Shown: one piece after another, positions 1,620 through 58,523 of the stretch
Numbering within the stretch: position 1 is the first letter of the stretch
How the letters are laid out: each line of letters opens with the position of its first letter
IMG/VR virus record: IMGVR_UViG_3300020204_000007
Location: 105,060 to 169,059 of that record
Strand: one strand, 5' to 3'
From: a virus
Length of the DNA: 64,000 nt
The notes under the pieces: model-generated
The model's input: only the letters and a program-made list of their open reading frames with translations
The model's database searches: none
Told to the model about the DNA's origin: nothing
Program-made: the position numbers and the translations under genes

Positions 1620-1645
1620 TATCGGAACAACCAAATCTAACTTTA
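1620..1645 (-). promoter_or_regulatory. sigma-28-type promoter
   Basis: TAAAGTTAGATTTGGTTGTTCCGATA on the minus strand. Confidence 0.8.
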
Positions 1646-2108
1646 GGGGTTTTTTATTTGTCGAATATCATTTTTTATATGGCAAATTAGTCTATTAAGA
1701 TGCTATAATAGAAGTAACATCTACTCATTTCGCCCTCATAAATTGGGGGTTTTTCTGTTTACGGCATAAAAAAAAGAAGACTTTTAAGATGTAGCGTCTT
1801 GGGAGTAGTCAAGATGCACCTAGGTTGAAGTCACTTCCAGACGTTATTCCTAAGACGTTACGCCCAGAATAATAACGCTTCAAAGCGCTTAAATGAATCG
1901 ATTAGATTGTTTGCCTCGATGTTAGGTGCATTACCACCTAATGGAATCTGCTGTTGGGTTAGAACTCCTAAAAGAATAAAGGCCGTTCCGCTATGACCCA
2001 ATGTGTACACTAATAATGTGTTGCAGTATTCTCGAACATATCCCTTAGCCCCTCTGTATTTATATTACTAGACGCCATAATTATGATTCGCAATTTATTA
2101 TTTTCCAC

Positions 2109-2134
2109 TAAAGTTTGATTTGGTTGTTCCGATA
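2109..2134 (+). promoter_or_regulatory. sigma-28-type promoter
   Basis: TAAAGTTTGATTTGGTTGTTCCGATA. Confidence 0.8.
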
Positions 2135-2188
2135 TGGAAATGTAGGGCAGCAATGGTAACGAGTCCTATAAATGAGGGGGGAAATATT

Positions 2189-56500: not shown

Positions 56501-58440
56501 GTAATTGTTACTAAATTTACTCCGAGTTCGCTAATTAGTTTAAATGATGCAGCTGTGCCCGCAATTCCCCTTAAAACCAAACCATTTGTTGTTGATTTAA
56601 AAAGATTTGCTCCAGAAATTGGTTCAAATCCTGTAATTTTTACAGAACCAGCCGATAAGTCTCCGGTTGTCTGAATGTTCTGTGAACCAAAGTTAGGGAT
56701 AATTTTTGTTCCTGAAATTCCGGCAGCGCCGTCAATGTCTGAATTTTGAATTAAAGAAGATGATAGCTGTCCGTCAACATCTGATCGCACTATGCCGGTT
56801 CCAAAGCTAGAAAGCTTTAAATTTGAAAACTCAGCCGACGATGTTTTTTGCAAATCCTGATCAATAGTTAAGTTCGTATTAAACTTAACTGTTACATTAT
56901 CTGTCGATTCGCTGGTTAAAAGCAGGGTTTTTGCCAAAGCTTGTGGCTTTAAATCAATTATGCCTGAATGAGCAGGTGCCCTAACCTCCCAACTCATGCG
57001 CGTAGCGCCAACGTGAACATATCCATTTAATAACAAACGAGCGCCACTTGCTCCAGAAACGCCCGTTTCATCCAAAGAAGCGTTTGTTCTTTGAGGGTTA
57101 ACTACGTCCACATAACCAACGTTGACCGTAGTTACCTTAAAAGTACCGTTGTTTTGGTTATTTAAAAAATTTGTCACGCGAATATATTCGCCAGCAGCTA
57201 ATCCATCAACGCCACTTCCGGCACCATCGACTATATATCTAACTGTATTTCCAGATTGCCAAATAGCATCTAACAAATCAATATGCGCACCGGCATATTC
57301 TTCTTGAACGTACAGTCCAGATTCCTGAGAATCTTGTCCAGAAGCGTTGAAATTTACAACAATATTTTTATCTTCGGAGACATATTCAACCGGGGTTGTA
57401 TATGTGGCTCCCGAGATATTTACGGTAGAATTAAGTCCACCGATTGTAATTGTATTGTATCCAATACCCGTACCAATTGAAATGTTTTTATTTGTGTTGC
57501 CCGCCAAAACACTAATATCATCGGTATCCGACTCGATTGTATCAACAAAAAGGGCGCCGGTTGTCTGAACGTTCTGTGAACCAAAGTCAGGGATAATTTT
57601 TGTTCCCTGAATGGCGGCATTAACTCCCACATCGACATCAATTATTTTTGAAGAGCTAAGTAATCCATTACTATTTGTGTGTACAACTCCGGGAGTGTTA
57701 ATTCCGGCTCCCAGAGAAGGCACCACCAGCTGATCGGTGCCGATTGGATTAGAAAGAACGGTCGCGCCTAATTCATTTTCCAAAACAAAACTAGACGTAG
57801 AGCCGGCGTACCCACTTGAAACCATACCTTTTACGGGATCTAGATAGAGCGAAGCGGAAGTAGGAGTGCCGCCCGGGGTAAGCGTTAAAATCGGTGTTTT
57901 TGTTTTGACGGTTAACGTGATTTCGTCAAAAGTTGGATTTCCGGTGTCAGATAAATTTTGCGATAATTTAATTTTTTGAGAATCGGCATCTAACTCCAGA
58001 CCATTAAAAAAAGATGGATTCCAAACGCTTGGCTGAGGTTCTGCCCCGGTTCTCATAACTAAACGAGTATGCTGGTCGGCCAAAAGAGAAACAATTTGAG
58101 GAATTGTTAAAACGGCGGTGGCGAAATCCGTAACATTTGAAGAGGTCAATATTAACTCAGCCTCTTCAACGTTTGCTCTATATGCGATTTGACTCCCAAT
58201 AACGGTGGAAGTCCACGAAACGGTTCGAGTGTCTATGAGATTTACAAATGCTGGGATTTCAGTTGTGACCCAATCTGCAACGGTAGACGTTCCCTGGGAT
58301 ATATAAAGCTTTTTAGCGACAATATCATAATACCCTTGTCCCACAAACAGTGGAACGGAAGAGGGGGCGGTTGACCCAATTGTAATACGCAATTCGTGAA
58401 TGTCTTCGCCGATTAGGTCTTTATGTAAAATTTCAGCCAT
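53527..58440 (-). CDS. long tail fibre with C-terminal C1q-like domain
   Basis: 1637 aa; internal GxLSSSxIxxxD..KI repeats; FTAPVSGIYEF..FSGKLIG. Confidence 0.75.
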   Translation of the reverse strand: MAEILHKDLIGEDIHELRITIGSTAPSSVPLFVGQGYYDIVAKKLYISQGTSTVADWVTTEIPAFVNLIDTRTVSWTSTVIGSQIAYRANVEEAELILTSSNVTDFATAVLTIPQIVSLLADQHTRLVMRTGAEPQPSVWNPSFFNGLELDADSQKIKLSQNLSDTGNPTFDEITLTVKTKTPILTLTPGGTPTSASLYLDPVKGMVSSGYAGSTSSFVLENELGATVLSNPIGTDQLVVPSLGAGINTPGVVHTNSNGLLSSSKIIDVDVGVNAAIQGTKIIPDFGSQNVQTTGALFVDTIESDTDDISVLAGNTNKNISIGTGIGYNTITIGGLNSTVNISGATYTTPVEYVSEDKNIVVNFNASGQDSQESGLYVQEEYAGAHIDLLDAIWQSGNTVRYIVDGAGSGVDGLAAGEYIRVTNFLNNQNNGTFKVTTVNVGYVDVVNPQRTNASLDETGVSGASGARLLLNGYVHVGATRMSWEVRAPAHSGIIDLKPQALAKTLLLTSESTDNVTVKFNTNLTIDQDLQKTSSAEFSNLKLSSFGTGIVRSDVDGQLSSSLIQNSDIDGAAGISGTKIIPNFGSQNIQTTGDLSAGSVKITGFEPISGANLFKSTTNGLVLRGIAGTAASFKLISELGVNLVTITDNGTVTFHELTNGIVKASAAGVLSSSLITDADVGAAANIQGSKIQEASTTEPGIVTISSQSFSGNKTFTGNVAVSGLSTVGVVHNDVAGLLSTSLIMDADVNPSAAISAFKISIQPGGNITSIDAQAAIDELDEKKVAKTGDSMSGSLTFSSGFGIESTAPSAALNVGATSNTSVLNLGTGSSTKTINLGTGSGATTINIGGSGDTINIVGTLNSVNVTDMEVTDKNITLNKQGASSSGDGAGLGIEENASIVGYAKIGNSRTSWEFKAPAGSGNIRLTPSTEAYAAEFKIPSLTSSVVYSFPAITETLVGRSTTDNLSNKTLFNPIIDQITPYNVDKTIAISSTAALKIPVGTNTERSAFTATDGMVRYNSTDSFYEGYSDGNWSSLSAIKILTISSATVLSKQTKYLANTFAGSFSVTLPLGSANSRIEIKDANFTWQTNNLTIIPASGQRIHNLAINEPLVCDVNGGWVGLDWDSVNSRWVLATSAIVDLNDTYATELYAGVVSTGTQTFSGTKTFSDGIVLKTNATPAIAPADGIQVYAKADSKLYTLNSSGTEQAVGSGGSVLSITQASHGFTSADVGRPLYLNGSAYAFAKADIEATAEVSALISRVIDSNKFEVCLGGEVSSVGANLIVGGGFLTPGEVYFLSASEAGKISTTPPSVVGQISKPVGIARTTTALDFFNMTGSTIGGTNAYTQIGLTNNAVTTIQNASAYDNVELTGWVYINATTPLRFGIKVQVTKNGAGTNYLVSNQTTGDTPPLGFDVDATAAGLVQITLPSIAGFTSAVVQFSLNGPAVGASLPLQIESTNVSFSTVQAKDTNGIAFRNSAGTGIGSLTNAGYLLTPNIPAFYAWQTGGIASTLTGAFGTIAPKFGNTRLNVNGCYDTSTGRFTAPVSGIYEFHFGITHRYSSAAGQLEPTFYLNGSNISPRGCAYSWVTQSNDHDWVLAHMMLSLTAGQYVQCGIHACAAGVDYYYGENLGYFSGKLIG

Positions 58441-58497
58441 TTCGCCCTCTTAGGGAAATTTAGGTAGAACGATATAGGATTATTTTACAATAATGAC

Positions 58498-58523
58498 TAA
58501 AGTTTCTCAAGCAATTTCCGAAT
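58498..58523 (+). promoter_or_regulatory. sigma-28-type promoter variant
   Basis: TAAAGTTTCTCAAGCAATTTCCGAAT, same spacing. Confidence 0.55.

Follow-up and report, generated by a model that had tools for sequence, protein, structure and literature searches.

Sigma-28-type promoter-like sites confined to one block of a lake phage genome

In the 169,059-bp genome of a lake phage (IMG/VR virus record IMGVR_UViG_3300020204_000007), 25 promoter-like sites, 19 of one form (class A) and six of a second (class B), are confined to 35 kb, and their sequence gives good support for a promoter of the sigma-28 (FliA/SigD) type. The stretch analysed, referred to here as the window, is the 64-kb segment from position 105060 to the end of the record at 169059, and coordinates are those of the window unless given as genome positions. 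We infer from the observations below that these promoters fire, which factor reads them and when; the explanation that we rank first, at slightly better than even weight, is that the host RNA polymerase reads them with a sigma-28-family factor of the host. The record has a completeness of 100% (CheckV). No deposited phage is closely related to it: among named phages, Myxococcus phage Mx1 comes nearest (portal identity 28%) and SPO1-like phages come next, again by portal. DNA near-identical to positions 5001-15000 was found in 18 runs, all of them DNA and none RNA, of which 17 are labelled lake water and one, contributing a small share, drinking water. Contigs from four runs represent the same strain at low depth and differ at only 2 letters.

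Count, form and placement of the sites

The exact class A pattern, TAAAGTTA-N11-KCCGATAW, is matched 15 times, compared with 0.00 matches expected from 100 shuffles. Allowing one mismatch brings in the sites at 2109, 10845 and 27868(-), and the site at 32287 has the class A boxes with a spacer 1 nt longer, which gives a total of 19 class A sites of the general form T(A/T)AAGTTAGA-N10-CCGATA(A/T) between 1619 and 32314 (genome 106.7-137.4 kb). Class B (TTAAGTTTACC-N10-ACCGATAA) features a spacer 2 nt longer than that of class A and is present in six copies at genome 102.2-106.0 kb, two of them in the window (236-263(-) and 874-901(-)) and the other four just upstream of it. The -10 box is CCGATA in all 25 sites and is followed by A or T in 23 of these (G at 10845, C at 874-901), while the -35 box is TAAAGTTA/T in 16 of the 19 class A sites and TTAAGTTA in two or three. 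The gap from octamer to octamer is 11 nt in 18 of the 19 class A sites, 12 nt at 32287 and 13 nt in class B.

All of the sites lie between genes and are oriented in the direction of the gene that follows, with CCGATA ending 20-54 nt 5' of its start codon; in about ten cases, the stop codon of the preceding gene coincides with, or directly adjoins, the TAA of the motif. A whole-genome scan identified no site in the remaining 134 kb, including 32.4-58.4 kb of the window and genome 1-102 kb. A sequence-only reading of the window had listed 20 sigma-28-type sites, each about 20-55 bp before a gene start on the coding strand, with none in the tail module. Its placement and the absence of sites from the tail module agree with these measurements, and 19 of the 20 sites were recovered within 1 nt. 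That inventory captured class A but missed class B, and its twentieth site, at 58498, has CCGAAT as its -10 box and three mismatches, which is chance level by count, although TAAAG..CCGAATAGAA is kept at the matching orthologous intergenic spot of a relative (L045/L046). Given this conservation, site 58498 may be a weak promoter variant. The sites of the window are as follows (RBS, ribosome-binding site).

1619-1645 (-), class A: exact match; 22 nt to the ATG of a 60-aa gene
2109-2135 (+), class A: one mismatch; the TAAAGTTT variant equals the E. coli -35 octamer
3248-3274 (+), class A: exact match; cassette near-identical to 1619-1645(-)
5173-5199 (+), class A: exact match
6011-6037 (+), class A: exact match; TAA is the stop of the upstream gene; 5' leader hairpin
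7190-7216 (+), class A: exact match; 5' hairpin leader
8839-8865 (+), class A: exact match; TAA is the stop of a ClpP-like gene
10845-10871 (+), class A: one mismatch (GCCGATAG); TAA is the stop of a Mom-like gene
12177-12203 (+), class A: exact match
13571-13597 (+), class A: exact match; promoter and leader identical to the 14006 copy
14006-14032 (+), class A: exact match
15444-15470 (+), class A: exact match; promoter and leader identical to the 16528 copy
16118-16144 (+), class A: exact match
16528-16554 (+), class A: exact match
19491-19517 (+), class A: exact match; before a GP88-family gene
21071-21097 (+), class A: exact match; 5' hairpin leader
27868-27894 (-), class A: one mismatch, TTAAG variant; TAAAG at orthologous sites in L040 and L041
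30368-30394 (+), class A: exact match; before an AAA ATPase gene; orthologues in G005, L040 and L041 with different spacer and leader
32287-32314 (+), class A: TTAAG, spacer 1 nt longer (also in G005); before a 574-aa HNH-domain gene
236-263 (-), class B, promoter-like: TTAAGTTTACC..ACCGATAA, spacer 2 nt longer
874-901 (-), class B, promoter-like: TTAAGTTTACC..ACCGATAA, spacer 2 nt longer
58498-58524 (+), possible weak variant: TAAAGTTT-N11-TCCGAATA; 25 nt before RBS and ATG

No promoter-like signal other than class A is enriched in the region, because sigma-70-like sites are at chance level there (76 compared with 78.5 ± 9.1 expected, in the same 20 kb as class A). These 20 kb contain few convincing coding-strand terminators. 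A search of IMG/VR with the extended motif returned single, chance-level matches only, in 8 contigs.

The E. coli sigma-28 consensus is TAAAGTTT-n11-GCCGATAA (PMC2859248), and class A corresponds to TAAAGTTA-n11-TCCGATAT, with identical spacing at 18 of the 19 sites. The two octamers share 13-14 of 16 bases with the class 3 flagellar promoters read by sigma-28 (FliA in E. coli and Salmonella, SigD in Bacillus subtilis), as well as the n11 spacing and the placement and orientation before genes. The sigma-28 anatomy proposed from the window alone is thus borne out in both boxes, spacing, position and orientation, and it is conserved in related phages (see below). The phage sites differ from the class 3 consensus in having T instead of G before CCGATA and a -35 box extended to AAGTTAGA, whose position 2 varies between A and T. 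They also differ in number, with about 25 copies in 35 kb of a lytic-type phage genome, and in the genes that they would drive: class 3 promoters serve motility genes, whereas the phage sites precede accessory, nucleotide-metabolism and DNA-modification genes.

Conservation, leaders and driven genes

Four related lake phages (G001, G005, L040 and L041), with approximately 75-77% nucleotide identity over shared genes, were used for comparison. At their orthologous sites both boxes are kept, while the spacer, flanks and 5' leaders have diverged. Before the AAA ATPase gene, the four relatives carry T(A/T)AAGTTAGA, a variable spacer and then AAAGCTCCGATA(A/T); their upstream flanks and leaders are unalignable with one another, and the leader hairpin has been rebuilt from other bases. 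The 27868 site is associated with the same box-only conservation, and exchange between TAAAG and TTAAG has occurred in both directions. The more distant L045 (a 159.8-kb scaffold) features TAAAGTTT-N11-TCCGATAA after its portal gene, and two further relatives, whose ATPase is 42-48% identical, carry T(A/T)AAGTT..ACCGTAA before the orthologous ATPase gene (L081:9954-9981 and L082:9872-9898). No site was present in the 105-kb portal-bearing fragment of a relative, which presumably covers mostly the structural part. Mx1 lacks both a sigma-28-type motif and any strongly repeated 9-mer in its small-gene block.

Approximately half of the longer leaders start with a predicted hairpin that has a 6-7-bp stem and a 6-nt loop beginning AAT, and this hairpin is retained in relatives from different stem bases. 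Those predicted directly after promoters are as follows.

6040-6065, predicted leader hairpin
7220-7245, predicted leader hairpin
15472-15490, predicted leader hairpin
21100-21125, predicted leader hairpin
30397-30420, predicted leader hairpin

Promoter, leader and first codons are also duplicated nearly letter for letter before different genes, as if the cassette head had been moved or copied.

13571-13630 and 14006-14065, duplicated cassette heads
15444-15510 and 16528-16594, duplicated cassette heads
1590-1645(-) and 3248-3300, duplicated cassette heads

This organisation is comparable to that of T4-type phages, in which promoter-early stem-loop cassettes carry sigma-70-type promoters. Many close promoters and stem-loops bound small, fast-changing genes in both, and in both the cassettes are duplicated; the T4-type promoters are of the sigma-70 type, unlike the sigma-28-type sites described here.

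The genes behind the promoters are mostly small and without assigned function. Family matches among them comprise a 2-oxoglutarate (2OG)-Fe(II) oxygenase, an orphan antitoxin-type domain, a ClpP-like protease, a Mom-family protein, a methyltransferase, a dCMP deaminase, a GP88-family protein, nucleotide kinases, an AAA ATPase, an SLT transglycosylase (lysozyme) and an HNH-domain protein, a content that looks like a pre-replicative and accessory set. Both the Mom-family protein gene (10203-10847) and a small methyltransferase gene (14542-14970) lie within the sigma-28-type block. One tRNA-Ile gene, with anticodon TAT, was identified at 34376-34451.

The reader of the promoters

Sigma region 2 (PF04542) was not detected in six frames of the whole genome. 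Models of region 4 and of ECF factors (PF04545, PF08281 and TIGR02937) returned a single match, an isolated region-4-like helix-turn-helix (HTH) in g099, a 188-aa protein encoded two genes past the portal gene (genome 72973-73539) and grouped in a protein atlas with small viral region-4-only proteins. This protein was rejected as a sigma factor, as its only sigma-like feature is the region-4-type HTH and a PDB sequence search was without a match; its single-sequence fold had a predicted local distance difference test (pLDDT) score of 37 and was unusable. No family match was obtained for g113. The FliA model TIGR02479 had no match in the genome, and our own profile, built from five bacterial FliA genes and run with filters off against all 940 open reading frames (ORFs) of at least 50 aa, gave a best E value of 0.04, which is noise. 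PHROGs indicated no sigma factor among 32 mid-size proteins, and the annotated sigma factor of Mx1, itself barely seen by Pfam (E = 9e-4), has no homologue in this phage or in other phage records. A further candidate, the ORF that follows the orthologous helicase gene (62155-63078), is a GT9 glycosyltransferase gene and was likewise rejected as a sigma factor. Protein clusters related to this GT9-like gene number more than 120 (47-91% identity), on environmental contigs of up to 223 kb, and the gene seems to mark a large clade of uncultured phages, probably from fresh water.

RNA polymerase beta-prime (PF00623) was likewise absent from the genome, and the tail sheath protein was the only product of a large ORF to contain a DxDGD motif. 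The T7-type RNA polymerase model PF00940 had no match in the genome, but its control also matched nowhere. Many mid-size proteins are without annotation. The reading of the window alone had offered, as an alternative, a sigma factor or RNA polymerase encoded by the phage elsewhere in its genome; the search of the whole 169-kb record found neither, and this absence favours a host sigma factor as the reader. As no phage RNA polymerase or sigma factor was detected, the phage would depend on the host polymerase, so the simplest reader is a host sigma-28-family factor.

The host core RNA polymerase, with its own sigma-28-family factor, would bind T(A/T)AAGTT as the -35 box and (T/G)CCGATA(A/T) as the -10 box and start transcription approximately 7 nt downstream. 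At the 5' end of many transcripts, a short protective hairpin would precede a strong ribosome-binding site, and about 25 such starts along 35 kb with few terminators would drive small accessory, nucleotide-metabolism and DNA-modification genes. Expression of the block would then require active host sigma-28, and thus a motile or motility-programmed cell. Promoters of the sigma-28 type usually work in species other than their own, both in reporter assays and in vitro.

Several observations weigh against a host reader. Conservation extends beyond the sigma-28 core to GTTAGA, part of the spacer and a TGT after the -10 box, and A and T are freely exchanged at position 2 of TAAA, features that could be due to a reader particular to this lineage or simply to recent duplication. 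The class B spacer is 2 nt too long for canonical sigma-28. The drift from CCGATA to CCGTAA at the orthologous site of two distant relatives, L081 and L082, is easier to explain with a phage-borne factor, and the poor visibility to Pfam of the Mx1 sigma factor means that a hidden sigma factor may also exist here. With the exception of the class B spacer, these points are what speaks for a phage-encoded specificity factor, which could be a divergent sigma factor, an injected protein or a re-targeter of the host sigma factor; in that case, the block would form a middle class activated by a phage product made earlier, and its sigma-28 likeness would stem from descent from, or convergence on, a group-3 sigma factor. 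The abundance of unannotated mid-size proteins leaves room for such a factor, and the SPO1-like phages, next nearest after Mx1 by portal, use their own sigma factors, with gp33/gp34 late promoters of the form CGTTAGA(N17-19)GATATT (PMC3601020). As in the lake phage, these constitute a phage-wide non-sigma-70 set, and GTTAGA and GATAT are both found in class A. However, the SPO1 late boxes are 17-19 nt apart, whereas the class A gap between GTTAGA and GATAT is 12 nt, and SPO1-type cascades rely on phage-encoded sigma factors while no sigma gene was found in the lake phage. In addition to the lack of region 2, of FliA-profile matches and of a homologue of the Mx1 sigma factor, a factor that had diverged beyond detection is unlikely to retain the exact sigma-28 boxes and spacing, and the sole sigma-like piece, the region-4 HTH of the 188-aa protein, would be unable to specify a -10 box. 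We therefore regard a phage-encoded reader as unlikely, although it is the most serious competitor, and consider reading by the sigma-28 of the host more probable than reading by a hidden phage factor.

A non-flagellar member of the sigma-28 family in the host, for example one with an expanded FliA regulon as in predatory Bdellovibrio, or one of the WhiG-like or chlamydial sigma-28 kind, would connect the block to a host life stage and not to motility as such. In B. bacteriovorus, TTAAG-N16-CCGATA is found at 92 of 140 attack-phase promoters (PMC3627812). These promoters share their -10 box with the phage sites, TTAAG is present in some phage copies (27868, 32287 and class B), and a large non-flagellar gene set stands behind a sigma-28-type signal in both. 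However, TAAAG-N15 is dominant in the phage: 18 of the 19 class A sites keep the N15 register, 32287 alone is TTAAG-N16, and class B has N17. In 131 genomes from the phylum to which an Oligoflexales genome belongs, the extended phage -35 box was found once, equal to the control count of 1, and flagellin upstream regions of that phylum yielded no clear consensus for comparison. Two candidate host links were rejected. For Melainabacteria, a search of species genomes with the GT9 profile led to one binned contig, with nothing else shared with the phage and no motif; for Oligoflexales, the 39% ATPase homologue sits in a bacterial defence island. With no gene or sequence link to any host found, a non-flagellar reader appears quite improbable, and the Bdellovibrio-type host suggested by the sequence-only reading is not upheld, as the sites follow TAAAG-N15-CCGATA and not TTAAG-N16. 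That the repeats are not promoters at all, but recombination joints of mobile cassettes or protein-binding sites that resemble sigma-28 promoters by chance, is very improbable: whole promoter and leader cassettes are duplicated (13571/14006, 15444/16528 and 1619/3248) and a stop codon is often built into the motif, but chance is very unlikely to have produced both sigma-28 boxes at exactly the right spacing, the copies are uniform in orientation and in their distance from the RBS, and the presence of two fixed boxes amid changing spacers and surroundings in relatives is the pattern of a bipartite promoter.

Neighbouring motifs and the infection programme

Eleven sigma-54-type boxes, TGGCAY-N5-TTGCT, are present compared with 0.36 expected genome-wide. 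They lie at L009:2123-4938 (genome 102123-104938), ending 121 nt before the window, and include several head-to-head pairs. These boxes are flanked by ACAGA-RY-TCTGT palindromes and are positioned 45-75 nt upstream of class B sites, and similar boxes are found upstream of class-B-like sites in the relative G001. A gene for a sigma-54 activator (PF00158) was not detected in the phage. Two other motifs are possible late-promoter classes: ATTGTGATACAATT followed by ..AAGCCACTTA heads two structural-gene blocks (51960-51975(-) and L004:5330-5345(-)), and CAGTTGGCTTTATATAA(A)TATGGG is shared by genome positions ~25.5 kb and 87.1 kb.

In textbook phage programmes, sigma-70 promoters or a phage polymerase act first and are followed by phage-made factors. 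A full-text literature search returned no paper on phage genes under sigma-28-type promoters. A broader proposal, which we put forward tentatively and at somewhat less than even weight, is that this phage hands its accessory and pre-replicative programme to the motility sigma factor of its host, with sigma-54-type boxes in the adjacent island, such that full infection would proceed only in cells that run the flagellar or free-swimming programme; related freshwater phages may follow the same strategy. Motility-sigma control would fit a phage that depends on the flagellum, or a host that passes through a motile stage. If this is correct, dozens of phage genes would be under the control of the flagellar sigma factor and infection would be tied to host physiology, motile versus sessile, with a bearing on host range, on the ecology of lake phages and on phage-host arms races. 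The sites would also provide a simple sequence signature for predicting sigma-28 dependence.

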